64,000 nucleotides of DNA from a virus (taxonomy: Duplodnaviria > Heunggongvirae > Uroviricota > Caudoviricetes), in IMG/VR virus record IMGVR_UViG_3300010049_000010, positions 64,749-128,748 of that record; one strand, written 5' to 3'. A model generated the notes under the pieces. It was not told the origin of the DNA, ran no database searches, and worked only from the letters and a program-made list of their open reading frames with translations. Shown one piece after another: positions 717-20,541 of this stretch. The stretch's first letter is position 1. Each line of letters opens with the position of its first letter. Both the position numbers and the translations under genes were made by a program.

Positions 717-751
717 AATAATATATAAGAATAAATTAACTAACGTTCAAA

Positions 752-2119: not shown

Positions 2120-2135
2120 AATAGTTAGTTTACAA

Positions 2136-2147
2136 TAACTAATTATT
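2136..2147 (+). promoter_or_regulatory. conserved A/T box TAACTAATTATT directly abutting the ATG
   Basis: The same box abuts start codons at 25882, 39494, 47831, 28838(-), 47334(-) and 2119(-). These genes lack a Shine-Dalgarno site. Confidence 0.45.
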
Positions 2148-4275: not shown

Positions 4276-4894
4276 ACAATTTTTAATTCATAGACAAACT
4301 ATTGGTATATTGGGAATTATATTGCCATTCGCATGTTTATTTTTTGGTATGTTAGATCCGGCAGCAACAGGCGGGTGGTTTCACAGTATGTCAGCTACAT
4401 ATTTTACTAATGCGAGAGATATTTTCGTAGCAGTATTAATGATGGCAGGCGCTTTTATAATTACTTATTCAGGTTATGACTGGAAAGACAGACTTGTAAA
4501 TATATCTGCTGGTATTATGGCATTTGGAATCGCATTATTTCCAACAGCACCAAGCGGGTTAGAAATTGCTAAGATTGGATTGTTTTCCGTTCCTGTTGGT
4601 ATATCTGCTGTATTGCATACTATTTGTGCCGTATTATTTTTTGGATTACTCGCGTTAAACATACTTTGGTTATTTACTAAAGGCGAATCGGGAACTCCTA
4701 AAAAGAAACTTAGAAACTTAATTTATATGATATGTGGTTGGGGGATTGTGGGATCATTCGCACTAACTGCTATTGGACTTATATTTAACTTCCACGATAT
4801 GTGGATTTGGATTATGGAAGCAGTAATGCTTATTTTATTTGGTGGAGCGTGGTTAACAAAAGGAAAAGCTATTAAGATATTGAATGATATCTAA
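4268..4894 (+). CDS. polytopic integral membrane protein
   Basis: About six hydrophobic helices. The start was moved to the ATG for MDKQFLIH, because the track start at 4214 overlaps the previous gene. Confidence 0.5.
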   Translation: MDKQFLIHRQTIGILGIILPFACLFFGMLDPAATGGWFHSMSATYFTNARDIFVAVLMMAGAFIITYSGYDWKDRLVNISAGIMAFGIALFPTAPSGLEIAKIGLFSVPVGISAVLHTICAVLFFGLLALNILWLFTKGESGTPKKKLRNLIYMICGWGIVGSFALTAIGLIFNFHDMWIWIMEAVMLILFGGAWLTKGKAIKILNDI

Positions 4895-4925
4895 CTATCT
4901 ATTATTAAAGGAGCGTTGAGGCATA

Positions 4926-5969
4926 ATGAAAATTCGAGAACTTTTTAAGAACAAAAAAACAGCTCTAATATCAGTCGTGGGGATTGTATTAGTAATATTG
5001 TTTTGTATATGTTTAACTATAATGTATAACATAATGACTATTGAGAAGGATTCTAATTTTGCTGTGCACCAGATATTACAAAATAAATGGTCATACACCG
5101 AATCCTTTATGAGAAAACTGTTGATTGAAAATGCAGAATTAGCGGAGAATTTAGCTGACCAAATTATTTTAGATGCAAGAAGATTCTCAGATGAACAATT
5201 AACACATTATCTTAATACGATAAACTTAGCTGATGAAAATGCATTTAGACCTCTAATTGAAGACGTAATAAAAGGAGTATATTTTAGAGATATACCAGCA
5301 GATTGGAATGATCCTTTCGTAATGATAATCGGAAAAAACAGAGAAGAAGATTCTTTTATTCTAACGGATTTTTCTGAAAATTGTTCAATTGAAGATTATG
5401 CTTCTGAAGGTGAAATCGTAAGATATATGGAAGACGAATACAGATTACATGCAGACCCTGTTTTAGCAAGACATGCATTTAATAATATAATGGATTTTAA
5501 ATCTGGAGAAATTTGGGAAGGCGTAAATTTCTTCCAATTTTTGGACTGGTTACCCAGTGCAGCGAGATTTGAATCCTATGACTACAGAGGATTAAGAAAA
5601 GCGTTCTTTGATAATGATGGTGATTTAAGAAAAACTTTTGGAGCCATTGAAATTTTGACTCCATATTATATTTATAGAGACAGAGATATTGTAGGGAATC
5701 CTAGAATCGTTAATAGACAAATATCAGATACAAGAATTATTGTTGTTGTAAGCGCATTTAATCCTTATGATATAATGGTACGAGATTATGATTTCAATGC
5801 AAGGACGCGACAATATTTACAATCAATCGAAAATATCAGACTCGAACATCAAAAATCAAAAACCTTCTTATTGAAACTTAATCTTCTTTTACTCGTCATT
5901 GATATACTTGGAATCGCCCTAATTTATGCAGTTTTAATCAATTTACGAAAGAAGAGCGGACAACAATAA
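4926..5969 (+). CDS. membrane-anchored protein (N- and C-terminal TM)
   Basis: AGGAG Shine-Dalgarno site 8 nt upstream; TM helices at both ends. Confidence 0.5.
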   Translation: MKIRELFKNKKTALISVVGIVLVILFCICLTIMYNIMTIEKDSNFAVHQILQNKWSYTESFMRKLLIENAELAENLADQIILDARRFSDEQLTHYLNTINLADENAFRPLIEDVIKGVYFRDIPADWNDPFVMIIGKNREEDSFILTDFSENCSIEDYASEGEIVRYMEDEYRLHADPVLARHAFNNIMDFKSGEIWEGVNFFQFLDWLPSAARFESYDYRGLRKAFFDNDGDLRKTFGAIEILTPYYIYRDRDIVGNPRIVNRQISDTRIIVVVSAFNPYDIMVRDYDFNARTRQYLQSIENIRLEHQKSKTFLLKLNLLLLVIDILGIALIYAVLINLRKKSGQQ

Positions 5970-5983
5970 GGAGTGTGATTTAA

Positions 5984-6955
5984 ATGGAACAAGAAGCAAC
6001 GGAGTTACTCAATTTAATAGTAGAAACTAGTACCACTGGTGACATTTCTCAAACTATTATAGTGATTGCACTTGAATTATTATTCTTTCTCGCCGCATCT
6101 TCAATAGGTTTAATATTTAGAAACATGTTGGGAGATAAAAAGTTTAGACCTTGGAAAGATATTGGATTTGTAGTAATCACTACTATTATATTATTCACTA
6201 TCGGAAATTGGGTTAAAACATTAATACCAGACTCAAGATTATTCTTCTTAGTAAGCGCAGTTATTGCAGCATATCTTCCAAAAATATTTATGGCTCCAAA
6301 AAAGGGAAGTATATTCGCTAAAATCGTAGCAGTATTTAATCCTCGATGGGCAGAAGTTATAGAAGAAATACATAAGAAAGACGAGATAAATTACGATTGG
6401 GAAAAACAAGGTGATAGAAGGGGTGCAACATCAGGTACTATAAATAATAGGCGTGCTGAAGACAAAAAAATCACTTTTGATAAAGAAGATTTCATATTAA
6501 AAGAACCTCTCGAAATAGCAAGATATCTTGAACCAACTAATCTCTTTGGAAAAATAGAAGGTGATTGTGTAATATTAAAAGATAATATAGCAACTTTTAA
6601 TTTTTATGGTGCGGAACAAATGGATAATAATGTGTTCAGAATCGCAATACCTGATGAATTAAAAACTTATAAAAATGTAAGAATCTCTTTACGATTAACA
6701 GAAAAGAGAATGATTGAAGCTGGAAAGAAAGTTAAGATACAATTCAAAGCTGGACCTGATAAAGACTTATTACCTTATGATAAGTTTGAATTGCATTTTG
6801 ATGAAGTCAATGATTCTAACAGCCAAGAAATACAGATGAGTAAATTACCTCATGGTGCAGTATACTTTTGTCATAATCGTTATGGACACGGTTCTGGAAA
6901 GCCTGTAGAATATTCTCTTGAAGTTACAATGATACATTTCTTTGACAAAGAATAA
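5984..6955 (+). CDS. membrane protein with a soluble C-terminal domain
   Basis: AAGGAG Shine-Dalgarno site; three N-terminal TM helices. Confidence 0.5.
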   Translation: MEQEATELLNLIVETSTTGDISQTIIVIALELLFFLAASSIGLIFRNMLGDKKFRPWKDIGFVVITTIILFTIGNWVKTLIPDSRLFFLVSAVIAAYLPKIFMAPKKGSIFAKIVAVFNPRWAEVIEEIHKKDEINYDWEKQGDRRGATSGTINNRRAEDKKITFDKEDFILKEPLEIARYLEPTNLFGKIEGDCVILKDNIATFNFYGAEQMDNNVFRIAIPDELKTYKNVRISLRLTEKRMIEAGKKVKIQFKAGPDKDLLPYDKFELHFDEVNDSNSQEIQMSKLPHGAVYFCHNRYGHGSGKPVEYSLEVTMIHFFDKE

Positions 6956-6987
6956 TTCATTAATATGAGCTCTTAAAACTAAATAAT

Positions 6988-9249
6988 ATGGCAAAAGAGA
7001 AATTAAACGAGTCAACATACCAAAGTGGACAAAGACCAAAATCAGAAATATTCAAATCAAGTTTTAATAAAAGATTATCCTCATTGTGGGGCTGGCAAGG
7101 CGTACAGAAAAAAGACGCTCAATCAGAGTTTGAAAAAGTAAATGGACTTAGACTTGTAAAAGTAGATGTTCAAAATGATTCATATAGAGTTAAGCACGCA
7201 GCATTAGGTTCGATATTTAAGTCTGCGCCGTTAGCTACATCGTTAAATAAGTATTTCAACGCTTATGTAAATGAAACGACGCTCGTGTATTCTGACATTG
7301 CAGAAAGACAACAAAGATTAAATGAATTAAGATTTGCTGTTTTAAATGATCCATTTTTATCTCGAGTTTGCCAACTTGTATCAGATGAAGCTACACAATT
7401 AGATGACCAAAATAGATTATTATCAGTAGAGTCACCATCAATACCATTCGTAAATAAATGTTATGAATTATTTTCTCAATGGGGTTTAACGCAACAAAGA
7501 ATTAGCTCAGTTTGTTATGACCTCGAACAATATGGTGAAGCACTTTGGTCACATAGAGTAACGGAGAAAGGCGTAGAAAGCATACAGCCTCTTAAAGTTC
7601 CAGCATTAAAAGAAAGATTAGAATTTAGTGCGGCCCGCATGGCTGAAGTTGTATCTCAAATGACAGGCGAACAAGAAACTATGAAGAATCGTTCTACTAA
7701 AATTGGACGATTAGTAGACCTAATTACAACTCGATCAGGCAGAGATCAACTTTCAGATCTAGATGAAAATTTTGCTGATATGTTTAGCTCAAAATTATTA
7801 GGCTTTGAATTCGCCGATGGAATAATAGTACCACCTTGGTTAATTTCTCACTTCAGATATAGAGCTGATAACTCAGAATTTTTCCCTTATGGAACGCCAC
7901 CTCTTTTAATGGCGCTAGCTCCATTTAAGATGTGTTATTCAACAATGCAATTACAAGGATTAGCGAGAGCGAGTTCTTTCCCAGTTCAAATATATAAAGT
8001 AAAACAAACAGAAGGTGTTGGTGTTGCAACCGCATTTGAAACAGTAAACTCAGTTCGAGAAGATTATGAGAATATCGGAGTAAGCCCACTTTCTAATTCA
8101 CTTGAAGTTTATACTGTCAATACTAAAATTTGGGTGCCAGATGGTCTTCTAGAATTCGAAGTGCAAAAATCTGAAGTTGATATGGACTTTACTGGCGACT
8201 TAGAAATGTATCAGGACAGGGTAGCGACAGCTTGTGGTATTCCGAAAGGATATCTTGACCAAGAGTTTGGTGGTTTTGGACAAAGTGGTATCGCATTAAT
8301 GGAACAATACAAACCATTTGGACGACATGTCTATACTATCCAATCTAGTTTCTTGGAAACGCTCGGACAACTTATAAGATTACATTTCGCAATTACTGGC
8401 GAGTTTGACTACAATATCCCATTCGTATTATCAATGCGTTTCCCTGCTGAAGATATGGGTGATGAAAAACGAGAAGCAAGATCAGCTTCAGTTGAACTTG
8501 CTAACGGTATTATTGAGATGTTACAAGGCGTTCTCGGAATGGAAGAAGGTGAACCACTTCCAGAAGATGTAGTAGCAGATATTTTAAGCAAATACACATT
8601 CTTAGATCCAACAGATTTACAACGATGGATCCGATTATCAGCAATAGCTAAAGCTGCAGCTGCCGCTAACTCAGAAGGAGAGGACGCCGATGATGATGGC
8701 AGTGGAGGGGACGACTTCGGCGGAGATATGGGTGGAGGAGATATGGGCGGAGATGATATGGGTGGCGATGAAGGCGGTGGAGATGAGGGTGGTGGAGACA
8801 TGCTTGAATCTATGTCAAAAGAAGCCAGAACATATTATCTTAAAACGAGAAAATTACTCCAAGAAAAAGAAAATAAAAAATTAAAAGAAAAGAAATTAAG
8901 ACGATTAAAAGAAATAAGTGAAAGATATAATGAAAGTAAAAATGAGATATATTTTAATTTCTTAAAAGAAAATCACTTTACTGAATGGCAGAGACCGGGA
9001 AAAGGCCACGAAATGATGATACCTAAAGTATTACCAACTGGCGTATATAAACATATGTATGAGACTTTTAAAGTATTAACTGATGATGCGTCTAAAAACT
9101 TATTAAGCGGAGCAGGCAGATTACGAGAAAGAGAAATGAGCGTAACTGATATGTTAAATGCGTCTAAACAAGATAATATGACTTTAGATGTTATGTTAAG
9201 CCAGCCTCTTCAAGAAAAAATGACTTCTGAGCTCGATGAAAATCTATAA
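6988..9249 (+). CDS. large hypothetical protein (753 aa) with a GGDMGG low-complexity repeat and a basic coiled-coil C-terminus (possible virion protein)
   Basis: The aactaaataat-ATG box abuts the start. It carries the repeat GGDMGGGDMGGDDMGGDEGGGDEGGGDM and then a KKLKEKKLRRLKE stretch. Confidence 0.5.
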   Translation: MAKEKLNESTYQSGQRPKSEIFKSSFNKRLSSLWGWQGVQKKDAQSEFEKVNGLRLVKVDVQNDSYRVKHAALGSIFKSAPLATSLNKYFNAYVNETTLVYSDIAERQQRLNELRFAVLNDPFLSRVCQLVSDEATQLDDQNRLLSVESPSIPFVNKCYELFSQWGLTQQRISSVCYDLEQYGEALWSHRVTEKGVESIQPLKVPALKERLEFSAARMAEVVSQMTGEQETMKNRSTKIGRLVDLITTRSGRDQLSDLDENFADMFSSKLLGFEFADGIIVPPWLISHFRYRADNSEFFPYGTPPLLMALAPFKMCYSTMQLQGLARASSFPVQIYKVKQTEGVGVATAFETVNSVREDYENIGVSPLSNSLEVYTVNTKIWVPDGLLEFEVQKSEVDMDFTGDLEMYQDRVATACGIPKGYLDQEFGGFGQSGIALMEQYKPFGRHVYTIQSSFLETLGQLIRLHFAITGEFDYNIPFVLSMRFPAEDMGDEKREARSASVELANGIIEMLQGVLGMEEGEPLPEDVVADILSKYTFLDPTDLQRWIRLSAIAKAAAAANSEGEDADDDGSGGDDFGGDMGGGDMGGDDMGGDEGGGDEGGGDMLESMSKEARTYYLKTRKLLQEKENKKLKEKKLRRLKEISERYNESKNEIYFNFLKENHFTEWQRPGKGHEMMIPKVLPTGVYKHMYETFKVLTDDASKNLLSGAGRLREREMSVTDMLNASKQDNMTLDVMLSQPLQEKMTSELDENL

Positions 9250-9260
9250 CTAAATATCTA

Positions 9261-11069
9261 ATGGATATTTTACTTCATGAAACGCAATTAAAGCATTTCG
9301 TAACATCTGGAATAACTAATAAGTCAATTCAAAAAGAAGGCACGGGGGATGTCGACCTTAAAAGAGCTCTCTTAAATTATCCCTCATCATTGCATCTCGT
9401 ATATGAAGTAGATTCATCAAAGGGTGGCGCTACTATTTTTACTGCAAACGGACAAGAATTAGCAGGCTTAAATAGGGGATATACGGTCCAACTTTACTTT
9501 GAAAATATAAAAAATATAATGCCAAATAATTTTACGTCTCTTCCATATAGCCAACAAGCTGCTATATTACAGAGAGTGTTTGATAAAGCTGATGTAAAAG
9601 TTCAATGCGATTGTGGAAGTTTTTACTGGCAAGGCATGTCTGAAAAAGACAGCGATAAGGGAAATACACGCCCACCATTTAGTGGGCATCCAGGAAAAGA
9701 TATTTGGGCAAGCAGGCATAATGCAAGCGGGAATGTCCAGGGACAACAATTGTGTAAGCACCTTTGGGCGGCTGTAGAACATATAGACGGGGATATCCCA
9801 AATATAGTAAAGAGCTTGTCTGGCACTAAGGCTACTACCTCAGCTGCAACTGCTACAACACAACCAACTGACGCATTAGAAGCTCCAGACCAACCAGCAG
9901 GATTGCCGGATGAAAGAGTAAAATCTAAAGGTGGAATTAAATCAGATAAGGCTGCGGATGCAGTTCAAGCTGATATTGATGAAGTTCAATCAAGATCAGA
10001 ACAGAATGATTTGCCAACTTTAGACACAACTGAAACAGAAGCTAAACCAGTTGAAGAAGAAACTGAAGCTCAAGAAGGACCTGAAGACGCAGAACCACCA
10101 ATTGAAGAACCAAACGTTAGCAAAAGTTTAGAACCTGAATTAGAAAAAGAAGAAGATGATTTGCTTGAAGAACCTCTAGACACTAAAAGTAAGCCTGTTG
10201 GACTTGTAGAGTCATTTGAAAATATATATTCAAATTCATTAAAAGAAATGATTGCGTTACCAATTCTTAGAACAGGTGGATATTATGATGATATAGAGTT
10301 AGAAGCTGATAATGATGATGCAGATGAAATAAGAGAAAAATTAAATAATATTATAATTCCAGCTAAAAAATGTTTATCATCAATAGGGGTTGATGATGAT
10401 TATTATGCGTCTGAATTGATTTCAATGTTAGGGAAATCAAAAAATGATAAATCATTTGTAATTATAGATACTGATATGAATCCTGTAGGTTTTTCAATAT
10501 TTAAAGTTCGAGGAAAAAAGAAAATAAAAGACATTTTAGTTATTAGTTTTTTAGATACTAATAATATGTCGATTGCAAAACATATTATTGAAAAAGTTGA
10601 AGAGTTTAGAAAAAAAGGTTTTGAACTTGTTTGGGACGTATTTTTAGATAATCCAATCAAACGAGCTTATGATAGATTTGTTGATAAATTAGGCGGGGAA
10701 AGCTGGGATGAATATTTGCATGAAGTTGATCGTCCAGTAAGACGATATAAATTAAGTCCATTAACAGAAAGACTACAAGAAATTTTAGAATATGTAGGCG
10801 ATTGTACAGATGATAATTATGCCGGCTATAGAGATGAAACTTGTATGGCACAAGACTTAGGTTATTATTCTACATTTAATGAAGATTCAGATGGTAAGGA
10901 AAAAGATAGTAATTTTTCTAAAATAAGTGAAAAAGAATTTATTAAAATGTGCCCGGACTTTAAAAAAGTAATCGGACAAAATGAATGGTTATTCCTCAAA
11001 AGATTTGATGACACAGTTTATTGTGCGTATAATTATGATGATGACATTCATTATTTTTGGGCCGACTAA
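9261..11069 (+). CDS. SWIM-type zinc-finger protein with an acidic E/P-rich linker
   Basis: A CxC…CxH arrangement (QCDCGSFYW … QLCKHLWAAVEH), followed by a long acidic low-complexity segment. Confidence 0.45.
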   Translation: MDILLHETQLKHFVTSGITNKSIQKEGTGDVDLKRALLNYPSSLHLVYEVDSSKGGATIFTANGQELAGLNRGYTVQLYFENIKNIMPNNFTSLPYSQQAAILQRVFDKADVKVQCDCGSFYWQGMSEKDSDKGNTRPPFSGHPGKDIWASRHNASGNVQGQQLCKHLWAAVEHIDGDIPNIVKSLSGTKATTSAATATTQPTDALEAPDQPAGLPDERVKSKGGIKSDKAADAVQADIDEVQSRSEQNDLPTLDTTETEAKPVEEETEAQEGPEDAEPPIEEPNVSKSLEPELEKEEDDLLEEPLDTKSKPVGLVESFENIYSNSLKEMIALPILRTGGYYDDIELEADNDDADEIREKLNNIIIPAKKCLSSIGVDDDYYASELISMLGKSKNDKSFVIIDTDMNPVGFSIFKVRGKKKIKDILVISFLDTNNMSIAKHIIEKVEEFRKKGFELVWDVFLDNPIKRAYDRFVDKLGGESWDEYLHEVDRPVRRYKLSPLTERLQEILEYVGDCTDDNYAGYRDETCMAQDLGYYSTFNEDSDGKEKDSNFSKISEKEFIKMCPDFKKVIGQNEWLFLKRFDDTVYCAYNYDDDIHYFWAD

Positions 11070-11250
11070 ATGGAAGCACTCGTATCCTTTTTTGAACCAT
11101 TTATGGTAATGGTTTGGTTCGCAGGAGTTTATGGAGTCTTCATTGGATTAGCTTGGTGCATTCATCACGCCTATTGGTATATAAGATTATTTTTTCATCA
11201 TTTATTTCAAAAAGACTAATTTAAACTCATTAAATAAGGAGATTACTATA

Positions 11251-12309
11251 TTGAAAAGAGTAAAATTATTAGCACAGGCATTCTGTATGCTTGTCGTCGC
11301 GTTTTTCATCATGAGTTGTGGTGGAAAAGAAAAACTATATCTATTCAACTGGTGCTACTATACGCCGGAATCAGTTATTGAATTATTTGAAAAAGAATTT
11401 AACGTTAAAGTAGTTATAGACGAATTTGCGTCTAACGAAGATATGTTTGCCAAATTACGCTCAGGCGGCGGCGGTTATGACATTATTTTCCCTTCAGCTG
11501 ATTATGTTTCTATTATGATTCAGCAAGACATGCTTGCTACAATTGATCCTGATAGAATCCCAAATGTTACTAGATACTTAAATCCTGAAATTAGCAAGTT
11601 TACCGGCAAATTTGATGAGGGAAATAGATACAGTATTCCATATTATTTCGGCGCTGTAGGCATTATGGTTAATACGCAACGAGTGCCTAACTTTGAAAGA
11701 AGTTGGAATATTTTTGAGCGAACAGATCTTGCCGGCAGAATGATTATGTTAGATGATATGAGAGAAGTTATGTCAGCCGGTATTCTCAGATGGAATGCGA
11801 GGCCTGATATAAATACAGCTGATCCTGATATAATTCACTTTACGAGAAATCTAATCAATCAATTCTGGAAGCCTAATTTACTTAAATGGGATTCAGAGGC
11901 TTATGGTAAAGCATTCGCTAATGGTGACGCTTGGGTAATTCATGGCTATCCTGAAAATGTGTTTGAAGAAATTGCTGGAACTCCGCTCGAAGAATATACA
12001 GTATTTTTTATGCCACAAGAAGGCGGGACTGTATTTTTAGACAGCATGGTTATTCTTAAAACTTCTAAGAGACAAGATTTGGCTCATCAATTCATAAATT
12101 TTATTTATAGACCTGATATTTATGCGTTATTTGCAGATGAGTTTAGATTTCCAACTGAGCAAATTCACACTGAAGCACACAATCATACTGAGTCAATTCC
12201 AATGTATTCTGCGGCGGACGTATTAGGCGGACATATAATTATTGATGTGGGAACTGCATTAGATTATTATAATGAAGCTTGGTATAATTCTATCAGAGTA
12301 GGCAATTAA
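11251..12309 (+). CDS. PotD/PotF-like periplasmic polyamine (spermidine/putrescine)-binding lipoprotein
   Basis: TTG start with an AAGGAG Shine-Dalgarno site and a lipobox (FIMSC). LYLFNWCYYTPESVIELFEKEFNVKVV and SGGGGYDIIFPSADY closely follow the PotD/PotF N-terminal signature. Confidence 0.65.
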   Translation: MKRVKLLAQAFCMLVVAFFIMSCGGKEKLYLFNWCYYTPESVIELFEKEFNVKVVIDEFASNEDMFAKLRSGGGGYDIIFPSADYVSIMIQQDMLATIDPDRIPNVTRYLNPEISKFTGKFDEGNRYSIPYYFGAVGIMVNTQRVPNFERSWNIFERTDLAGRMIMLDDMREVMSAGILRWNARPDINTADPDIIHFTRNLINQFWKPNLLKWDSEAYGKAFANGDAWVIHGYPENVFEEIAGTPLEEYTVFFMPQEGGTVFLDSMVILKTSKRQDLAHQFINFIYRPDIYALFADEFRFPTEQIHTEAHNHTESIPMYSAADVLGGHIIIDVGTALDYYNEAWYNSIRVGN

Positions 12310-12331
12310 GTTTTTGATCTCACTAAATAAT

Positions 12332-12967
12332 ATGCAAACATTTAGTGAGATACATAAACAACATCTTAAAGAATTATACATACCCATAGGTTGGAAAAAT
12401 CCTCAAATTATAAATAAAGACACTGGTGACGTTTTAGATATTAAAATAAATAAAAAATTAAATAATATTCCATCTAAGCCAAATTGGGATCATGCTAATC
12501 GTGGAGGTTTTACTGACGCATATCGTCTTGTAAAGGACGCGGCTATAGACACAACTTATGGGTTTGAGTCCTTTTTAATTTTAAGCAATGAAGAAGATGA
12601 TGAACCAATTGGAGTCATTTCATTTAAGACGAGTGATGAATTAAATGGCGCGATGAAGCTTATATTAGACGAAAATGTTGATTGGGAATATGACCCTATT
12701 GCTGATTGTATAGTTGAAGCATATTTAGTTGGATTTAAAGAAAATAATTTTACTTTAGTAAAAGACATGTTTAGACTATTAGATCAAATGATTGAAAAAT
12801 ATGAATATATTGGTTGGTCAGTGCATAATAACGCGCCTGTAAAAAAGATATATGATAAAGTTTACAAGTCTAAAAAATATGAGATGTTTACAAGCAATCC
12901 TAGTTGCGATAAATATTCAGGTGAAGCATATACACAATATGTAATATTAGGAGATGGAAATCTATAA
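12332..12967 (+). CDS. hypothetical protein
   Basis: The start was moved to the ATG abutted by cactaaataat (MQTFSEIHK…), because the track start at 12314 is a TTG inside that box. Confidence 0.45.
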   Translation: MQTFSEIHKQHLKELYIPIGWKNPQIINKDTGDVLDIKINKKLNNIPSKPNWDHANRGGFTDAYRLVKDAAIDTTYGFESFLILSNEEDDEPIGVISFKTSDELNGAMKLILDENVDWEYDPIADCIVEAYLVGFKENNFTLVKDMFRLLDQMIEKYEYIGWSVHNNAPVKKIYDKVYKSKKYEMFTSNPSCDKYSGEAYTQYVILGDGNL

Positions 12968-13683
12968 TGAAAAGTTTCTCAGAAATATTACAAGAACAAA
13001 AATATAATAATACGAATAGAATTTATTATCATGGATCTAGAGATCCAAATCTTGATCTAAAAAACTTTTTCAAAAGAGGAGAAAATAATGCTCAATGTTT
13101 TTATTTAACTCCTACATATGATTATGCAGTTCAGTATGCTCGAAACAAACAAGAGATGGCACTGGCTTATAGATCAGATGCAAGTGTCGCTTCTGGGGAT
13201 GATTCTGCTGTTTATCATTGTAAAATAATTAAACCTCTAAATATTTGTAATGCTAAATCTAAAACTGACTATGAATTTCTATTACATGAAATAGAAAAAT
13301 TATTGTTTTACATAAATGATAATGATAGAATTGAACGACCTGAGGGTTGGTTAAAAAGAGCATGCAAAAGAGCTGCAGATCAACTTGTTTTTAGATTTAA
13401 GGAAGAAGATTGGATTGAAGTTATTCATGATGAAAATAACAGAGAACATGAATTGTCTTTTCCAATGAGAGATAAAATAATTGACGCTATTAAAAAAGGT
13501 GGATATGATGGTTATTATAATTTTGAAACGGAAAAGGATGAGTGCGGTCCGTCAATTGGAATTTTTTCTGGAGACTTAACTTCAAAAATAAAAATATTAC
13601 GAAAACAAATAATTAGATATAAATTATACAGTGACCCAGACGAGGATCCTAGATACTTTCGCCAGTACGGAAATTGGCAATAA
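12967..13683 (+). CDS. hypothetical protein, weak member of the MxxFxxILxE N-terminal family
   Basis: N-terminus MKSFSEILQEQ resembles the MRTFKQILREA family. Confidence 0.5.
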   Translation: MKSFSEILQEQKYNNTNRIYYHGSRDPNLDLKNFFKRGENNAQCFYLTPTYDYAVQYARNKQEMALAYRSDASVASGDDSAVYHCKIIKPLNICNAKSKTDYEFLLHEIEKLLFYINDNDRIERPEGWLKRACKRAADQLVFRFKEEDWIEVIHDENNREHELSFPMRDKIIDAIKKGGYDGYYNFETEKDECGPSIGIFSGDLTSKIKILRKQIIRYKLYSDPDEDPRYFRQYGNWQ

Positions 13684-13686
13684 AAA

Positions 13687-13717
13687 AGCCCGCATTGCTG
13701 CGGGCTGGATATTTTTA
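13687..13717. terminator. bidirectional rho-independent terminator
   Basis: 8-bp stem agcccgca/tgcgggct with loop ttgc, flanked by an A-run on the 5' side and a T-run on the 3' side. It lies between convergent genes. Confidence 0.65.
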
Positions 13718-13729
13718 AATAATTTTAAG

Positions 13730-14128
13730 TTACACGATTTCTGGAAGGTCGGCGAGTTCGCCATTGCCATCAACTGGGTTCACTTCTTCGACAGTGAAAA
13801 GTTCCGGCTGGGCATTTTTCTTCGCTCTGCGAGCTGATACCTTGCCGTTAACCTTGATTGAAAGGGCCGCGGTAAACTTTGCCTTTGCAGCATCGCGTTC
13901 GGCACGTGCTTCTGTGATAAGGGCGAGCCTTTCATCGCGTTTTGCCTGGCGTTCTGCCTTGCGGGCTTCAACAGCGGCGACGTAAGCGAGCTTGTTTGCA
14001 TCCTTGAACGCATCCATCTGTGTTTTGAGCAGGGCGTTGATTTCCGCGCCGACCGCAGGATTCTTTGCCATTTCTGTAGCAAAAGCCGCAAACAATTTTT
14101 CTGTTCTGTCTCTAAGATCTTTTCTCAT
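13730..14128 (-). CDS. basic Ala/Lys/Arg-rich small protein on a GC-rich (about 50%) island; putative nucleic-acid-binding protein
   Basis: The ORF exactly spans a roughly 400-bp block whose GC content is close to twice that of the flanks. Charged helical sequence (KAERQAKRDERLALITEARAERDAAKAKF). Confidence 0.5.
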   Translation of the reverse strand: MRKDLRDRTEKLFAAFATEMAKNPAVGAEINALLKTQMDAFKDANKLAYVAAVEARKAERQAKRDERLALITEARAERDAAKAKFTAALSIKVNGKVSARRAKKNAQPELFTVEEVNPVDGNGELADLPEIV

Positions 14129-14215
14129 TTTTCATTCTCCTTGAATGGTTGTTTATATTAGGTTTCCCTGATAATAATATATAAGATTTTTAGAAAAGCC
14201 GTTCAAAAAAGAAGT

Positions 14216-14671
14216 TTATCTTCTAGCGTAAAGCTGCCGCCACATTATCGGAATTTTGTTTAGTTTTGCGTTATTGAAGCCTAATTTTGCATAATAAGTC
14301 TTAAGTTTTACAGTTCTGGCTTGAAGCGTACAAGACGTCTTGCCCTCAGATTCGGCTATAGAAATGAAGTCAGTTATTATCGTTTTTCCAATACCTTGGT
14401 TTTGATATTGTTTAATCACTTCTAAAACGGATAAATGTATTGAATTAGGAAAGTAATTATTTTCACACACACATATAAGCGCCAAAGTATTTCCGTTATC
14501 ATAAATTAAATCATTATTTTCTTTAAGACATTCATACCAAGCATATTTAACTTCATCGTAATATCCGTCGCCATGAGTTCTATTTGGACCAATATATTGA
14601 AATACGAGCGGGAAATCCGTTTCAGTGTATTTTAACTCAATATCATTAGGAGTCGTTCTTATGTACCGCAT
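14216..14671 (-). CDS. GNAT-family N-acetyltransferase
   Basis: Acetyl-CoA-binding motif QNQGIGKTII; size 151 aa. Confidence 0.6.
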   Translation of the reverse strand: MRYIRTTPNDIELKYTETDFPLVFQYIGPNRTHGDGYYDEVKYAWYECLKENNDLIYDNGNTLALICVCENNYFPNSIHLSVLEVIKQYQNQGIGKTIITDFISIAESEGKTSCTLQARTVKLKTYYAKLGFNNAKLNKIPIMWRQLYARR

Positions 14672-15089
14672 TAGCTCTTTTCACCTTTATTCTTTGTAAA
14701 ACGTCAATTACAGTTTGTGGGTTTATATTTTTATAAAATGGTTCTTTTTTAAGTAATTCATTTGCTTCATGAAATTTATATTGTTTTTTATTTTTATTTA
14801 ATATTTCATGTATTTGTTCTGGGTCAACTTGTTCTTTTTTATAAAGTTCAGCAGCTGCCTTCATTCTAAATAAGTGATTTTCATTTTTAGTTAAATCATG
14901 CATTTGTTTCTGATTATCTGCATATTTATAAGCCATATTAGATATGAGAAAATCTTCTGATAATTTAGGTCCTGAATAATTTTCACACATTTCTATTATT
15001 TCTTTTAAAGCGATACCATATTCTTTATATTGAGATTTTCCAAGATTTAGAAAGCAAACTTCCCTATGTCTCAACTCTTTTAAGTTCAT
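14646..15089 (-). CDS. hypothetical protein
   Basis: ORF only. Confidence 0.4.
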   Translation of the reverse strand: MNLKELRHREVCFLNLGKSQYKEYGIALKEIIEMCENYSGPKLSEDFLISNMAYKYADNQKQMHDLTKNENHLFRMKAAAELYKKEQVDPEQIHEILNKNKKQYKFHEANELLKKEPFYKNINPQTVIDVLQRIKVKRANAVHKNDS

Positions 15090-15110
15090 AATATTTAGTT
15101 ACTAACTAAT

Positions 15111-15674
15111 ATGAATACAGGAAGAACAAGAACTTCATCAGTGCAAAGCAGATTAGCAATGGTTAACGATAAAATGAGAAGAAAATGCATTGATAATCAA
15201 TTATATTGGATTAGCAATCCAGTAGACTGTGTGAGAATGAGAACTAGAAAAACATATGAAGGAGATGATGAAAGTTATATTGTCGAAATGTGTGATGTTG
15301 TATCAGCAGTATTCCCGCCATTAGAAGACGTTCCATATCGCAAAGTAATGGTTGATGAAAAAACAAGGGCTTGGTCACTTACAAGTTTAGTTTCTACATT
15401 CGAAGAAGACGCAAAAGAAAAATTTTATACGTTACAAATACCTTATGAATTTGATATAAATGTTGGTGATATGTTATTTCGTATTATGTTAGATGAGTCT
15501 CAAAAATATCCAATAATTATTCCAATTCAAATACAAGAAATGTTAGGCACATTTGGTGGGATGATGTTGATAATGAATAAGTTTGTCGCGACTATTCCCA
15601 CTGACAATTTTCCAGATGAAATTATTAGCACAATTCAACAGATGGCAGAAAGACGTCAAATCATTCGTTACTAG
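15111..15674 (+). CDS. hypothetical protein
   Basis: ORF only. Confidence 0.4.
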   Translation: MNTGRTRTSSVQSRLAMVNDKMRRKCIDNQLYWISNPVDCVRMRTRKTYEGDDESYIVEMCDVVSAVFPPLEDVPYRKVMVDEKTRAWSLTSLVSTFEEDAKEKFYTLQIPYEFDINVGDMLFRIMLDESQKYPIIIPIQIQEMLGTFGGMMLIMNKFVATIPTDNFPDEIISTIQQMAERRQIIRY

Positions 15675-16024
15675 TCATTATCAGGATCAGCAATCAATCT
15701 ATCTGACGGGCCTTCAATTATTGGATCAGTATATTCAGTATAATCACTACCAAAATATTCTGTCTGAAGATTTTCTAATTGATGATTGCCTAATTTAGTA
15801 ACGTAATCAGATAATTCCCAACAACCTTTTCTCCATAGAATAATTTCTTGAATTGCGTAAGCGCCTTTTAACTTTGATATATCAAAATTAGAATTACGAT
15901 ATAAATCTCTGTAATCTGTTTCATACCGAGATTTTCTGAGCGTTTTAATATCATCAAAATAAGATGATGTTACAATTTTTTTATTCCGTCTTGTTTTCGA
16001 AAGTATCAACTGTCCCTCCTGCAT
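15671..16024 (-). CDS. hypothetical protein
   Basis: ORF only. Confidence 0.4.
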   Translation of the reverse strand: MQEGQLILSKTRRNKKIVTSSYFDDIKTLRKSRYETDYRDLYRNSNFDISKLKGAYAIQEIILWRKGCWELSDYVTKLGNHQLENLQTEYFGSDYTEYTDPIIEGPSDRLIADPDND

Positions 16025-16367
16025 TTAAGTGATCAAATATATTCCCATCTAATGTTTTTACTAATTGCCCATTTTCATAAAGATATGATTTACAAATAAA
16101 ACCATCGGGTCCGCTTGAAGATTGCACTGTCCAATATGGTTTAGCCCTTTCTTCGTCATATCGACCATAACCTGATCTCGCATACCAAACTTCGGCGCCG
16201 CCATGTTTGTGGCCCATATCATAAACTTCTTTGATAAGCGCTCTTGCGCCTTCTTTTGCTGCAGTTGTTCTAGCGAATTCTTCTATAAGACTTACTATTT
16301 GTTCATATCGAGGAGTGTCCTCATTCATCATTTCTTCCCATGCTACTTTTGTCATTTTTATTCCCAT
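15981..16367 (-). CDS. hypothetical protein
   Basis: ORF only. Confidence 0.4.
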   Translation of the reverse strand: MGIKMTKVAWEEMMNEDTPRYEQIVSLIEEFARTTAAKEGARALIKEVYDMGHKHGGAEVWYARSGYGRYDEERAKPYWTVQSSSGPDGFICKSYLYENGQLVKTLDGNIFDHLNAGGTVDTFENKTE

Positions 16368-16606
16368 GCACTATTATTATATACTATAAGGTCATTTTCT
16401 TTTATATCGAACTTAAAACCTATATTTTTTTCTTTATCGGCTAAACCAATAGATCCGATATTTTCGATATCAACCCACTCCGGAACTAACAAAGTATGTA
16501 TTACTTTTCCCTTTTCTTTACCATATAAAACTATTCTAAGTACTTTATTAGTTTCATCATTTTCATCTAATTTTCTAGGTGCTAGTCCTAATTTACAATT
16601 ATTCAT
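16358..16606 (-). CDS. hypothetical small protein
   Basis: ORF only. Confidence 0.35.
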   Translation of the reverse strand: MNNCKLGLAPRKLDENDETNKVLRIVLYGKEKGKVIHTLLVPEWVDIENIGSIGLADKEKNIGFKFDIKENDLIVYNNSAWE

Positions 16607-16982
16607 TTTTTATCTCCTTCTGAACAATGTTTATTTGTACAACAAAGTTTACATACATATTTTTGTAAGGCGCTGCCCTTTAATATTTTATTTATTTTAA
16701 CGATACAAAAATATAAACTATGAATCATTTCTTTTTGTTAAACTCCGTACATTCTGTTACTATTACTTCAGTAGTTTCTTCTATATCATCTAATTTATTT
16801 TTCTTATCACAAGAATATTTGCATTTATTACAGATACTATTTTTCATTTTTCACTTCTATCCTTAAACTTACAATTTATATATTTACATTTATCTGTGCA
16901 TAATTGTTTAGCTATTTCAACTACATCATTATCATATTTATACTCAACTTTTCCAAATAATTCTTTTAATGTCTCATATTTT

Positions 16983-17891
16983 TTACAATTTGGCGTTAAA
17001 TTCATAAAATCCTCCAGGAATGTTCATAACAAATTCTAAATTAGTTCCGTTTTCAACATTCCATTTTTCTAATTCTTTTTTAAGCTTAAACTTATTTATA
17101 TTTATTTCTCTTCCGTCAGAATATGACTCGCCTTTAGTTAAATCTGATTCATTTAATTCTATTTCCATTCCAATTCCAAAATAAGGTTCGCGATGGATTT
17201 TAACTACTTCATTTAATAATGCGTACACTACATCTTTTTCTTTTTTGAGCACATACATATCAATTGAGTCATGAACATAATTAAACACTCTAGATCTAAA
17301 TCCCCATTTTTTGAGATGCATATTTATACAAGTAACGTCAGGCATTGCGTGAACGATTTCAGCAGTTTGAATAGATGTATTACTGGCTACATTTTTTAGA
17401 TTAGAAAACATTTTAGAATATAATTTTCTGTCAATGCCAATTAAATTACCTTGGGCATTTTTAGACATTAATCTTAATTCTGGTAAGTGTCGAACTGGAC
17501 CAACCCAAGTTCTAACGTAACCATGTTTCATCGCGAACTTCTGTTCTCTTTCTACTCGCTCTAATAATGATGGATAAGTTTTGAAAAATAATTCTCTTAG
17601 TTTATTTCCCAATATAACGTATTTTAATTCTTTTTCGCTTAATTTATTTGTGGGATTTAATTTAGCTTGATTATATGCTTGCCAAAGATTGAAACTATCA
17701 AAAGCAGTTTCACAATCATCTTCAGTGAAACCTGCAGCTTTCATTTGTCTGCCTAATGTCGGACCTTGACAAGCAAATAATGTTGCAAGACCTACAGTTT
17801 TACCATTAAATCTCATCTGTTTAAATGGACTAAATTTTTTCAATTTGAGAAAGTCTTCCATTGTCATATCACGTTTTGTTATCTTATACAT
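16983..17891 (-). CDS. family-A DNA polymerase, C-terminal fragment (fingers O-helix plus palm motif C)
   Basis: KQMRFNGKTVGLATLF matches motif B (RRxAKxxNFGxLYG), and YVHDSIDMYV matches motif C (VHDE). Confidence 0.75.
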   Translation of the reverse strand: MYKITKRDMTMEDFLKLKKFSPFKQMRFNGKTVGLATLFACQGPTLGRQMKAAGFTEDDCETAFDSFNLWQAYNQAKLNPTNKLSEKELKYVILGNKLRELFFKTYPSLLERVEREQKFAMKHGYVRTWVGPVRHLPELRLMSKNAQGNLIGIDRKLYSKMFSNLKNVASNTSIQTAEIVHAMPDVTCINMHLKKWGFRSRVFNYVHDSIDMYVLKKEKDVVYALLNEVVKIHREPYFGIGMEIELNESDLTKGESYSDGREININKFKLKKELEKWNVENGTNLEFVMNIPGGFYEFNAKL

Positions 17892-17907
17892 TTATAATAA
17901 ATTAACC

Positions 17908-18144
17908 TCAATCAAATAATTCACAAGAGTCAGTCACATAATTTTCATTTTTGAGCGTTGCGACTTCATGTTTTAAGTTTTCAATTTCTTCAATTAGATA
18001 TTTAAACATTGGAAAAATATCTTCATTACGAGTATAACCACTCGTTTTTGGACAGCCTTTTTCATATTTACAATTATGACAATCTGGAATCATCATTCCA
18101 CAATGCTGTTTATATTCTAAACAATATTCTAATGGTTGGCTCAT
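17908..18144 (-). CDS. small Cys-rich protein located between the two polymerase fragments
   Basis: CLEYKQHCGMMIPDCHNCKYEKGCP; it ends …CELFD-COOH, which resembles the LFDEEEL family tail. Confidence 0.4.
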   Translation of the reverse strand: MSQPLEYCLEYKQHCGMMIPDCHNCKYEKGCPKTSGYTRNEDIFPMFKYLIEEIENLKHEVATLKNENYVTDSCELFD

Positions 18145-18479
18145 GATAACTCACTTAATCCTTTGAAATAATCTATATTTTTTTGCATACATTCCATTAC
18201 GTATTCTAAATCTTTAATTTTTTCTTCATATTTTGATTTCATTGCCTGTAATTCAATATCCTCACAAGAAATAAAATTATAACAAGGTCCTTCATTGGGA
18301 TATGAATCAGGAGTCGCGACATTACAAAATGAAATAGATTTAATATCTCCCATTTCAAAACTTATATCACAATCATGTAGTTTAATAAATGGAGTATTTG
18401 CGTTTGCTGGATTTCCAAAAAAGATATTGTAATGTTTAAGCATAATCAATCCACTCATCTGTTTGTTGGAATTCCGCAC
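18141..18479 (-). CDS. small protein located between the two polymerase fragments
   Basis: ORF only; I see no HNH, GIY-YIG or LAGLIDADG motif. Confidence 0.4.
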   Translation of the reverse strand: MRNSNKQMSGLIMLKHYNIFFGNPANANTPFIKLHDCDISFEMGDIKSISFCNVATPDSYPNEGPCYNFISCEDIELQAMKSKYEEKIKDLEYVMECMQKNIDYFKGLSELS

Positions 18480-20541
18480 CCTTAATTATAATTTCATCTT
18501 CCTCATCAATCATTCCGTATCTTTTAACTTTTATTTTTTGTGTTTCACCAAAGATAATTTTCTTTCCAGTTTCTTCACATTCAATTTCAATTACTTTAGT
18601 ATGAATTGGTTTAACAAAAGTTCCAACAGTTGTAGCTGAGTGAGCATCTTTATGTCCCTTTTCACCGTAGATTTCATAAGCAATTTGATCCACTCCGCCT
18701 TTGCTAATTCCATTATCAGCGAGTGCAAGACGAAATTGAAGTGAAGCAAAGTCGGCGGAAATTACAAGCCACTCGTCACTGTTATGTGATTCTGGTTCTC
18801 CAATTAAATCATCTTCTAATTGAGTAAGATTAGGCGGAGCTTCAAATAATTTCTTAATATGTTTAGCGATAGTTGAACCTGATGGTATTTGTTGAAAATT
18901 TGGATCATTCATTGCGTGGCGGAAACTTTCTGTACCGAATGTATTACAATTCGGATGTATTCTCCAAGTTCCATCTTCATGTTGCACCATCCATTTTCTC
19001 CAACCTTCAATAAATGTTCCTAATGCAACGTTATATGATCTAAAGTCTTTAAGTGTTTTAATTCCCGGAAGATTCAATAATTCATACTCATTAAGAACTG
19101 GGTCACCTGTTCCATATCCTCCGGCTTTTGATTCTGAGACTTTTGGCCATTTCATTTTCTCAAATAAAGCGCCTAATTCTTTTGGAGATTCAAATTTATA
19201 ATTTTCATCTACATTCCAAACTTTGGCTAATTCTTTTCTTAATTCTATTATTTTATCTCTAATTATTTTTTCAGACGCATCAAATTTTGCTGGACTAAAA
19301 TATATTCCTTCATATTCTACTTCAGTAACAGTGTTTGCGTTTGGTATCATTATTTCTTTATAGAAACGATTTATAGTCCATTCGGGTTGTTTCTCATTTG
19401 GGAATTTTTTATCTAACCATTTGCAGTGTTCATCGAGCGCTAACTGTAATCTCCAAGTCACTATTGGATCTAAACCGGCATATTTACAAAGCACCCCTCT
19501 CGGAATTTCGAGATAATTATTTACTTTTAATTTCTTTTTAATTTTATCTAATTCGTCATCATAGCCTATAAACTTTCCACAATAAAATACTGCCCCAGTT
19601 TTTAATCCCTTCGGCCTTCCTGAATTTATCGCATGAGATAATAAAGCCGTATCATCTGTTGGAAACCAACCTTTAACACCGTTCCACCAAATAAACTTCA
19701 TATCGAACTTTGCGTTAGATAAAGTGATTCGTCTAGCAGAAGTCAGTACTTGTTTTAATATTCTTTTATCTACAAGTTCCCAAGGTAATACGAAGCCGGT
19801 ATAACCATCATTGCTAAATTGAATATAACCTAATTTATCTCGTATAAAATGGAAACCGCCTGTTTCTGTATCAACTGCCAATAATTCAGAATTGACAAGT
19901 GATTTTAATATATCAGAAGCTTCTTCTTTAGAATTGGCCAAGACGATACTATAATCTCTATCATCAAGTGATTTAGTAGTCATATCATCATTTTGAATTA
20001 ATTTTAATCTTGAACGAAAAGTTTTAGTAAAGAAGTTAGTTGGATCATTTCCCAATTGAATCGGATATAAATCTTTAATGTTTGCGACTGGATAAATCCA
20101 TTTGTCGGGACCGCCAATAAATTCCGAACCGCAAAAATATCTTGGACTATTCAATTTATCATCAATAAATTCATAATAGTTTACGTCACCTGATTTGTTT
20201 AGAATACGAATTGTTGATCCGAAAGCGATTATACATTCGCATTCTGTTTCATCAAAACTTAGATATTGTCTCCAAGGACTTTCAATTGAGAGTAAAAATG
20301 TAGTTGAATCTTCTTTTGGATTTTTTACAGATATTGCAGATACAATATTATATGATTTAATACCTGCTTTAATTATATCTTTTTCTAAAGTGTCTAAATA
20401 TATTTTTGATAAAATATCATCAACCAGAAAGAGATAATATTTCTCCCCTGGTTGATATTTTTCGCGTAATAAGCAATCATGCTTTTCTAAATTTTGTTTA
20501 GGTTTTTCCGTTTGTCGAACGCCACCAAAGTTAAATGCCAT
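18436..20541 (-). CDS. family-A DNA polymerase, N-terminal fragment (3'-5' exonuclease plus palm motif A)
   Basis: Exonuclease motif I LLAVDTETGG, motif II SNAKFDMKFI and motif III KYAGLD. The pre-motif-A signature NTFGTESFRHAMNDPNFQQIP matches TGRLSSxxPNLQNIP, and motif A is VISADFASLQFRLAL. Confidence 0.8.
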   Translation of the reverse strand: MAFNFGGVRQTEKPKQNLEKHDCLLREKYQPGEKYYLFLVDDILSKIYLDTLEKDIIKAGIKSYNIVSAISVKNPKEDSTTFLLSIESPWRQYLSFDETECECIIAFGSTIRILNKSGDVNYYEFIDDKLNSPRYFCGSEFIGGPDKWIYPVANIKDLYPIQLGNDPTNFFTKTFRSRLKLIQNDDMTTKSLDDRDYSIVLANSKEEASDILKSLVNSELLAVDTETGGFHFIRDKLGYIQFSNDGYTGFVLPWELVDKRILKQVLTSARRITLSNAKFDMKFIWWNGVKGWFPTDDTALLSHAINSGRPKGLKTGAVFYCGKFIGYDDELDKIKKKLKVNNYLEIPRGVLCKYAGLDPIVTWRLQLALDEHCKWLDKKFPNEKQPEWTINRFYKEIMIPNANTVTEVEYEGIYFSPAKFDASEKIIRDKIIELRKELAKVWNVDENYKFESPKELGALFEKMKWPKVSESKAGGYGTGDPVLNEYELLNLPGIKTLKDFRSYNVALGTFIEGWRKWMVQHEDGTWRIHPNCNTFGTESFRHAMNDPNFQQIPSGSTIAKHIKKLFEAPPNLTQLEDDLIGEPESHNSDEWLVISADFASLQFRLALADNGISKGGVDQIAYEIYGEKGHKDAHSATTVGTFVKPIHTKVIEIECEETGKKIIFGETQKIKVKRYGMIDEEDEIIIKGAEFQQTDEWIDYA

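Follow-up and report, generated by a model that had tools for sequence, protein, structure and literature searches.

Why would a bacteriophage carry a gene for a PotD-type polyamine-binding lipoprotein? The question is raised by a 64,000-nucleotide stretch of a Caudoviricetes genome (positions 64,749 to 128,748 of IMG/VR record IMGVR_UViG_3300010049_000010; hereafter the window), in which such a gene, potD, lies at 11251..12309. A preliminary description of the window had proposed three explanations for the gene: enhanced polyamine uptake, superinfection exclusion or receptor masking, and a reflection of a host that depends heavily on PotD-type transport. We found that the open reading frame (ORF), signal peptide and ligand pocket of the gene are intact, that it derives from a Treponema-type host gene, and that it is set among phage genes. 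We consider it probable, though well short of certain, that the phage protein would dock on the PotBC-PotA importer of its host and raise polyamine uptake. The gene and its start region comprise the following features:

11237..11242, plus strand: Shine-Dalgarno sequence AAGGAG, read from the sequence, 8 nt 5' of the potD TTG
11251..12309, plus strand: potD, 352 aa, an orphan gene for a Treponema-type PotD solute-binding lipoprotein, predicted to bind polyamines
11251..11319, plus strand: lipoprotein signal peptide, aa 1-23, with n-region MKRVK, 16-residue hydrophobic core LLAQAFCMLVVAFFIM and lipobox IMS-C

The start codon, read from the sequence, is TTG. The position of the AAGGAG supports this start, which restores the signal peptide of the protein. 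An independent gene call, from an ENA contig of 99.995% identity, has the identical 352-aa product. The Joint Genome Institute (JGI) call for an identical protein (P0001) begins at an internal ATG ('MSCGG...') and gives 332 aa without the signal peptide; a second protein, P0002, the PotD of contig L012 (below), was truncated in the same way by an automated gene call. From calls of this kind, automated annotation would miss the lipoprotein nature of these proteins. The lipobox I-M-S-C places the predicted lipidation site at Cys23 (nt 11317..11319), a residue that is invariant across 14 aligned homologs, at least 90% conserved across 120, and aligned with the lipobox cysteine of host PotDs and of other phage PotDs. 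Spirochaetal lipoboxes of the host homologs are comparable (IMGC, MVSC, TGSC), and two other phage PotDs also carry one (FMGC, LSSC). The lipobox signal peptide of the preliminary description was thus borne out: a Sec-type signal is followed by a lipobox cysteine, as in bacterial (spirochaetal) lipoproteins, and lipidation is predicted.

The resemblance to PotD/PotF, which had been claimed for the N-terminal 120 aa, holds and was undersold, as the match covers the full length of the protein. The Pfam families SBP_bac_8, SBP_bac_1 and SBP_bac_6 all exceeded their cutoffs, and the NCBIfam PotD profile was covered at positions 9-346 of 348 (E 6.7e-45, 153.5 bits); the E-values of the PotD matches are far outside chance. 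The NCBIfam equivalog cutoffs were missed, with 153.5 vs 582 bits for NF007048 (PotD) and 115.9 vs 636 bits for NF007962 (PotF). The window protein belongs to the PotD/PotF family without being an ortholog or equivalog of either E. coli protein. Among solved structures, its best relative is TpPotD/Tp0655 of Treponema pallidum (PDB 2V84; residues 27-349, E 5.6e-87). Structure prediction, suggested in the preliminary description as a check, was performed with AlphaFold2. An earlier model built from a 14-sequence alignment had a predicted local distance difference test (pLDDT) score of 56.9 and was discarded; the model built from a 120-sequence alignment reached 92.7. The best Foldseek match of this model was again 2V84, with template modeling (TM) scores of 0.85/0.94 and a root-mean-square deviation of 1.7 Å. 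The best 30 matches were polyamine receptors without exception, with PotD, PotF, SpuD/E and VcPotD1 following 2V84. The likeness to PotD is full length and includes the two-lobed type II periplasmic-binding-protein fold.

To what organism does the gene trace back? Among 5.8 billion proteins, an identical copy was followed by a protein at 68% identity and by hundreds in the range of 50-58%, many of them named Treponema sp.; the closest cellular homologs are PotDs of termite-gut Treponema at 53-58% identity, the best at ~58%. A scan of species-representative genomes gave a similar picture, its best 80 loci all being from termite-gut Treponema or other spirochaete metagenome-assembled genomes (MAGs; 47-60% identity). 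The MAG codes Co191, Emb289, Nc150, Th196 and Nt197 denote higher-termite gut samples (PMC7024585). In a neighbor-joining tree, displayed without bootstrap values, the phage copies, each on a long branch, diverge at the base of the clade formed by PotD1/PotD2 of termite Treponema, inside TpPotD. The G+C content at third codon positions (GC3) is 0.28 for the window potD, ~0.42 for host potD and 0.16-0.24 for phage genes, so that the codon composition of the gene is shifted toward the phage, i.e., ameliorated. We conclude that the window potD is host-derived and of Treponema type. Based on gene similarity and sample sources, the host of the phage is probably a termite-gut spirochete (Treponema). 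In every cellular locus that was long enough, potA-potB-potC lies directly 5' of potD, and a further potD paralog often follows. The phage gene has no such partners: tblastn detected no PotA, PotB or PotC homolog within the 64-kb window, where potD is not adjacent to potA and potB/potC as in a PotABCD importer, and potA, potB and potC are also absent from two related phage loci, L010 and L012, described below.

The preliminary description had stated that its interpretation would be refuted if the acidic and aromatic residues of the pocket were not conserved in an alignment. We mapped 14 pocket positions from E. coli PotD onto 28 sequences, using residue sets from PMC8666671 and PMC11414716, and found the cage preserved. 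Window PotD keeps W34, Y37, S82, D169, E172 and D264 and has the Treponema-type residues Y36, D84, Y233 and F300, as do TpPotD and all termite-gut Treponema PotDs. Every acidic cage residue (D84, D169, E172, D264) and every aromatic cage position is retained, and the set of acidic anchors plus aromatic box (E. coli W34, Y37, D168, E171, W229, W255, D257, Y293) is present with conservative aromatic substitutions. The cage is conserved in its spirochaetal form, and polyamine binding is predicted.

Agreement with the host consensus across these positions was 10/14 for window PotD, 14/14 for the PotD of a 329-kb related phage and 12/14 for TpPotD, an established polyamine binder. The four departures of the window protein (T35C, V236N, Y262F, K330I) are all found in its L012 ortholog as well and affect positions that are 89-99% conserved in 117 cellular relatives. 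Since residues of the distal site and the aromatic box determine specificity in PotF/PotD (PMC8666671), the changes might retune the pocket for agmatine, cadaverine, norspermidine or a similar amine in place of putrescine or spermidine, the mechanism being otherwise the same. We find such a retuning quite improbable. The charged anchoring residues and the aromatic box are all kept, the 329-kb phage keeps the host pocket unchanged in its PotD, and F262 and I330 are the counterparts of natural PotF residues, F276 and L348, in a protein that binds putrescine (PMC8666671). Because F262 and the aliphatic distal-site residue are PotF-like, specificity may have shifted toward putrescine, a reading that we regard as speculative.

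Is the gene really a phage gene? It could be misassembled host DNA or a recent capture that is functionless for the phage, and records of the first kind are common. The PotD of Escherichia phage vB_EcoS-813R8 (GenBank ON470619.1, L011; ~30% identity) proved to be E. coli potC-potD after a prophage integrase, i.e., host flank. In a broadened motif scan, 6/7 IMG/VR PotD matches (L118-L123, from isolate-genome uncultivated viral genomes, UViGs) were the same E. coli flank, the seventh being the 329-kb relative, UViG 3300010167_000010. Matches to Listeria, Staphylococcus and Enterococcus 'phages' at 26-30% identity were short unannotated fragments and were set aside. The window potD has no potC beside it and is enclosed by phage genes:

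6988..9249, plus strand: putative portal gene, 753 aa, used as clade marker; sub-threshold match to Pfam Portal_T4 (E 0.002)
9261..11069, plus strand: g9261, 602 aa, conserved phage gene, the upstream border of the slot that holds potD
12967..13683, plus strand: g12967, 238 aa, conserved phage gene, the last gene of the plus-strand block and downstream border of the slot

Window positions 1..19249 recur at 99.995% identity, with the same portal and the same potD, on an ENA contig of 328,413 bp (ERZ27264051 k141_7313039), and a JGI contig of 261 kb also encodes the identical PotD. The phage genes that enclose potD are thus the same in two independent assemblies. Together with the ameliorated GC3, a best cellular match of only 58% and a syntenic ortholog with a ratio of nonsynonymous to synonymous substitution rates (dN/dS) below 1, this largely refutes the idea of an artifact or dead cargo, to which we give almost no weight. 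The genes on either side, the two assemblies and the IMG/VR relatives all uphold the earlier claim that the lipoprotein is phage-encoded.

The identity of the phage was supported by several other features of the window. The portal-like protein has 274 homologs, which lie on contigs of 200-375 kb, and several of them (47-54% identity) have precomputed PF07230 (Portal_T4) matches; on the basis of these and its own sub-threshold Pfam match, it is a probable portal protein. A portal profile built from 6 sequences had no match in the PDB, nor did tblastn of the protein against GenBank phages give one. A megablast query of 15 kb from the window also went unmatched in GenBank phages, and 20 large window ORFs had almost no matches in PHROGs. 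Six relatives are IMG/VR viral contigs, including contigs of 329 kb and 258 kb. The window has a G+C content of 31.7% and no tRNA genes, and among the ~50 window ORFs scanned there were no housekeeping genes. Its replication and repair genes encode a split family-A DNA polymerase (PolA) with a 3'-5' exonuclease domain, ThyX, an ATP-dependent DNA ligase and a PD-(D/E)XK nuclease, and it also encodes an RNA ligase, a kinase and an HD protein. An M23 peptidase adjoins a 1090-aa multi-transmembrane protein, an LPD3-domain protein is present, and a 1171-aa protein contains the DUF6267 domain common to T4-like cyanophages and other large phages. That the window is a fragment of a ~330-kb jumbo phage is well supported.

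What would such a phage gain from PotD? In the mechanism that we favor, the Sec pathway of the host would export PotD during infection, and the protein, given its lipid at Cys23, would be held at the periplasmic side of the cytoplasmic membrane. There it would capture putrescine and/or spermidine and dock on the host PotB/PotC permease with its PotA ATPase, adding receptor capacity. The infected cell would then import more polyamine, which could serve replication, translation and the charge neutralization and condensation of a very large genome. The logic is the same as that of cyanophage PstS feeding host PstCA: infected cells contain PstS in abundance, its affinity for phosphate is high, and their uptake rate is raised (bioRxiv 10.1101/2021.07.20.453049). 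Polyamine enzymes are, moreover, widely encoded by viruses (PMC9992855). The window also encodes a PnuC-type nicotinamide riboside/nicotinamide mononucleotide transporter (55719..56381, minus strand) and a NadR-like protein with a cytidylyltransferase-like domain and AAA_28 (52947..53951, minus strand). These two make up an import pair for salvage of nicotinamide adenine dinucleotide carried by the phage, which we count in favor of uptake boosting. An auxiliary-metabolism-type role is the best supported of the three functions proposed in the preliminary description, although sequence alone would not decide among uptake boosting, exclusion and masking.

Coupling to the host importer depends on docking contacts, and those of E. 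coli PotD (Y56/T58 and the 212-222 loop; PMC11414716) were mapped onto the alignment, with the equivalent loop scored at 210-224. Window PotD keeps the host-invariant K220 and G225 and matches the host consensus at 10/15 loop positions, compared to 13/15 for the PotD of the 329-kb phage and 6/15 for TpPotD. As TpPotD works with a different PotBC, its low score suggests that the docking loop co-varies with the permease.

Several observations weigh against uptake boosting. The window and L012 proteins both have loop changes at host-conserved residues (A215S, F218Y, G221A, F227A), a changed N-lobe contact (Y56I) and the pocket changes T35C and Y262F; with contacts altered in this way, productive coupling to host PotBC would not be guaranteed. 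In P. aeruginosa, replication of phage genomes is inhibited when intracellular polyamine is high (PMC9992862), so that a phage need not benefit from additional import. The ~50 window ORFs scanned included no second gene related to polyamines, and neither capsid nor terminase genes were identified within the 64-kb window. Lastly, the host assignment leans on the similarity of potD alone and on sample sources.

Some of these points would fit a protein that works in the opposite direction. As a sink or decoy, anchored PotD would sequester periplasmic polyamines or occupy PotBC unproductively, lowering or buffering their entry, for example, in order to escape polyamine-triggered inhibition of replication or kin-lysis 'danger' signaling. 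In P. aeruginosa, it is polyamines taken up after kin lysis that inhibit replication of the phage genome (PMC9992862), and both the substitutions at host-conserved docking-loop and N-lobe positions in the window and L012 proteins and the lack of a permease or ATPase partner agree with such a role. However, this polyamine defense is known solely from a gamma-proteobacterium with Gac/Rsm, and a stoichiometric sink would be a weak means of control over a small and abundant solute. The PotD of the 329-kb phage is host-like in both docking loop (13/15) and pocket (14/14), as expected of a working receptor, and PstS, the phage solute-binding protein that has been studied experimentally, enhances uptake. 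We therefore regard a sink or decoy as unlikely, and uptake boosting remains the reading that we prefer.

Is PotD a peculiarity of this phage? Contig L012 (2.6 kb) contains the C-terminus of g9261, a small hydrophobic ORF and potD, arranged as in the window. Its prefix, Ga0123356, is also that of the Emb289P3 MAG contigs (Embiratermes neotenicus P3 gut). The L012 gene likewise starts with TTG, and its product, whose signal peptide ends in FMGC, is 66% identical to window PotD. dN/dS between the two genes was 0.16-0.31, with dS near saturation, and potD is kept under purifying selection in at least two phages. The closest large relative, L001 (IMG/VR UViG 3300010167_000010; 329 kb, portal 75% identical), has no potD at the site equivalent to that of the window. 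The same UViG encodes another PotD lipoprotein, MKRLVFLLLVIFCLSSC..., 48% identical to window PotD, ~57 kb from its portal (L010 10007..11041), among methyltransferase-like, Nudix, SLT transglycosylase, SbcC-like and GHMP-kinase genes. PotD has entered the clade, or moved within it, at a second locus. In a further relative (L114, ENA ERZ27257348 k141_859843; 90 kb, portal 79% identical), an orphan 262-aa SBP_bac_3 (amino-acid-type) binding lipoprotein, MRKIALILLAFCLFAC, is encoded at 16290..17078 on the minus strand, inserted between homologs of window genes 14646..15089 and 15111..15674. Two further relatives had no binding protein within 10 kb of the portal. Periplasmic ligand-binding proteins are a recurrent cargo in this phage clade.

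At the slot occupied by potD in the window, L001 has a gene for a phage-borne two-component sensor, a 705-aa hybrid sensor histidine kinase with HisKA, HATPase_c and REC domains (15936..18053), whose dCache_1 match is below the Pfam threshold. This raises the possibility that ligand-loaded PotD is a co-receptor for a chemoreceptor or histidine kinase of host or phage, reading polyamine levels, for instance as a signal of lysis of neighboring cells, instead of importing polyamines. Solute-binding proteins act as chemoreceptor co-ligands in other bacteria. TpPotD itself was called a putative 'polyamine receptor' by its authors, in a title as cited in PMC8666671. A common slot does not imply a common function, however, and the dCache match is sub-threshold. 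No signaling partner adjoins potD in the window, L012 or L010, and all cellular relatives are in transporter operons. We thus think a sensor role improbable.

A wider version of this idea would take in the clade as a whole. Given two loci with PotD, a binding lipoprotein of amino-acid type and, in the slot, a Cache-type sensor kinase, one could propose that these phages systematically equip the treponeme periplasm with their own ligand-binding proteins, and that PotD is part of phage-run sensing of polyamines from lysed neighbors. Such sensing would time lysis, sense superinfection or counter a polyamine-based defense, and PotD would not be, or not only be, a scavenger. We hold this proposal, too, to be unlikely, and continue with uptake boosting.

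The genes around potD bear on a further alternative, in which the periplasmic lipoprotein blocks DNA entry or receptor access of competing phages and the PotD fold is a mere scaffold. Besides g9261 and g12967, these neighbors are as follows:

11070..11219, plus strand: small hydrophobic (transmembrane-like) ORF, 49 aa, MEALVSFFEPFMVMVWFAGVYGVFIGLAWCIHHAYWYIRLFF..., filling the gap between g9261 and potD
12314..12967, plus strand: g12314, 217 aa, beginning 4 nt past the potD stop
13687..13706, no strand assigned: terminator-like GC-rich hairpin of 8 bp, 6 of them G-C, with T-runs on both strands, found by consensus scan only

Homologs of g9261 come after the portal-like gene in L001, L002, L012, L114, L115 and L116, and the region 3' of the portal is a variable cargo slot. 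In L001, the g9261 homolog (12269..15892) is interrupted, giving an N-terminal 161-aa ORF and an 832-aa ORF; between them, on the opposite strand, lies a gene for a 193-aa basic repeat protein that has no Pfam match and may be homing-endonuclease-like. The small hydrophobic ORF has a 60-aa homolog in L012 (1220..1402; 46% identity, E 2e-10), also directly 5' of potD, and among relatives whose slot lacks potD, no homolog of it was found. The gene g12314 is probably co-translated with potD. Its product resembles the central part of g9261 as a weak paralog (BLASTP, 24% identity over 211 aa, E 4e-5) with no Pfam, PHROG or PADLOC match, and tblastn found no match to it in L001, L002 or L114-L116, leaving the window phage alone among the loci examined. 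For g12967, no family match was obtained; its homologs in L001 lie at 19326..19913 and 18320..18811. The hairpin closes the plus-strand block that holds potD, though such sites are no commoner than in shuffled sequence. A scan for sigma-70 promoters and terminators around potD returned fewer promoter-like sites than in shuffles and one hairpin only.

The co-occurrence of a small membrane protein with potD and the placement of potD in a variable, moron-like slot would both suit an exclusion or envelope-masking factor. Lipoproteins encoded by phages do act in exclusion, as Llp of T5 and Cor of phi80 and N15 illustrate. Nevertheless, we strongly doubt this role for PotD: the pocket and 76% of the host columns conserved at 95% or more are kept under purifying selection, which a scaffold would not need. 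The known exclusion lipoproteins are also far smaller and unrelated, and PADLOC gave no match for potD, the small transmembrane ORF, g12314, g12967 or g9261.

Several other findings concern the window itself. First, PolA is split into an N-terminal part (16983..17891, minus strand; exonuclease and start of the palm) and a C-terminal part (18436..20541, minus strand), ~540 nt apart with small ORFs between; the ENA gene calls are split likewise. Second, genes for an HD-domain protein, an AAA_33 kinase-like protein and an RNA ligase stand in a row at 57229..60628 (minus strand), which suggests an RNA-repair module of the T4 Pnk/Rnl type. Third, two adjacent paralogous B12-binding radical SAM proteins of ~415 aa each are encoded at 36897..38147 and 38119..39360 (both minus strand), with ~30 nt of overlap. 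Fourth, the portal-like protein contains an acidic low-complexity segment, GGDMGGGDMGGDDMGGDEGGGDEGGGDM (window 8700..8850), and its C-terminal part is the most variable region among relatives; a 248-aa ORF at 2687..3433 has a D/E-rich tail. Lastly, a GNAT gene at 14216..14671 was considered as a spermidine acetyltransferase and rejected: with generic GNAT Pfam matches and one weak PDB match (E 1e-4), no link to polyamines could be claimed.

How does phage PotD compare with systems already known? TpPotD is ~46% identical over its full length and likewise a lipoprotein, and the two proteins have a common spirochaetal pocket variant (Y for E36, D for Y85, and aromatics at the equivalents of 229/255/293), from which window PotD deviates at T35C, Y262F and K330I. 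TpPotD is encoded on the chromosome and belongs to a polyamine transporter of the cell; window PotD is an orphan in a phage. Machius et al. in 2007 reportedly found that TpPotD prefers putrescine over spermidine. The closest sequences, at 53-58%, are PotD1/PotD2 of termite-gut Treponema, from potA-potB-potC-potD-potD operons (e.g., L007-L009, L016). They resemble window PotD in length and lipobox cysteine, and the window pocket matches their consensus at 10/14 positions; their genes follow potABC and have a GC3 of ~0.4, whereas the phage gene is partnerless, has a GC3 of 0.28 and sits on a long branch. Window PotD differs from the hosts at 39/160 of the most conserved host columns. E. coli PotD/PotF (1POT, 1A99, 8Y5H/8Y5I) belong to the same family and fold (E ~1e-40, TM 0.75-0.82). 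At ~30% identity to E. coli PotD, the window protein conserves its residues W34, Y37, S83, D168, E171 and D257 and has E36->Y, Y85->D, W255->F and Q327->I.

Phage lipoproteins that are exported to the host envelope, as predicted for window PotD, include Llp of T5 and Cor of phi80 and N15; these are small, unrelated to it and without a ligand-binding fold. Closer in rationale are the virus-encoded polyamine enzymes (speD/AdoMetDC, ODC, ADC, spermidine and homospermidine synthases and spermidine N-acetyltransferase; PMC9992855), which concern the same metabolite class. These are cytoplasmic, whereas phage PotD would act on import from outside the cell, and the 2023 virosphere survey that describes them (PMC9992855) contains 0 occurrences of transport, uptake, PotD or binding proteins. 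Phage PotD would accordingly add import to a manipulation of polyamines by viruses known so far through enzymes of their synthesis or inactivation. Phages require polyamines to replicate and to condense their DNA, and with genomes of ~330 kb the demand for counter-ions in packaging should be extreme. The finding is testable in vitro; work in vivo is limited by the uncultured host. In GenBank phages, IMG/VR and BFVD, we found no genuine phage PotD outside this clade: the best matches among the BFVD viral structures were Bug/TTT-type binding proteins (TM ≤0.46), none of them PotD-like. Nor did the full-text literature collections searched yield a report of a phage potD as an auxiliary metabolic gene (AMG).

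The nearest precedent is cyanophage PstS, which is likewise a phage-encoded, orphan, host-derived solute-binding protein, and which is thought, and for P-SSM2 has been shown, to associate with the ABC permease of the host and increase uptake (bioRxiv 10.1101/2021.07.20.453049). Like a PstS-type AMG, potD lies inside a phage genome and not at a prophage/host junction, and it is of cellular origin and retained under selection. Binding-protein family, substrate, the phylum of the host and the ecology all set the two apart. PstS occurs widely and has experimental support; phage PotD has so far been met in a single jumbo-phage clade and is known from sequence. The PotD at another locus, the SBP_bac_3 lipoprotein and the sensor kinase found in relatives suggest that the clade has repeatedly made adaptive use of periplasmic ligand-binding cargo. 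As a host-derived orphan solute-binding AMG, phage PotD is new in its substrate, in the phylum of its host (Spirochaetota), in being a lipoprotein and in belonging to a jumbo phage; the strategy itself, in which the phage supplies the receptor and the host supplies the pump, is known from PstS, and phage PotD would extend it to polyamines, to Spirochaetota and to a gut ecosystem.

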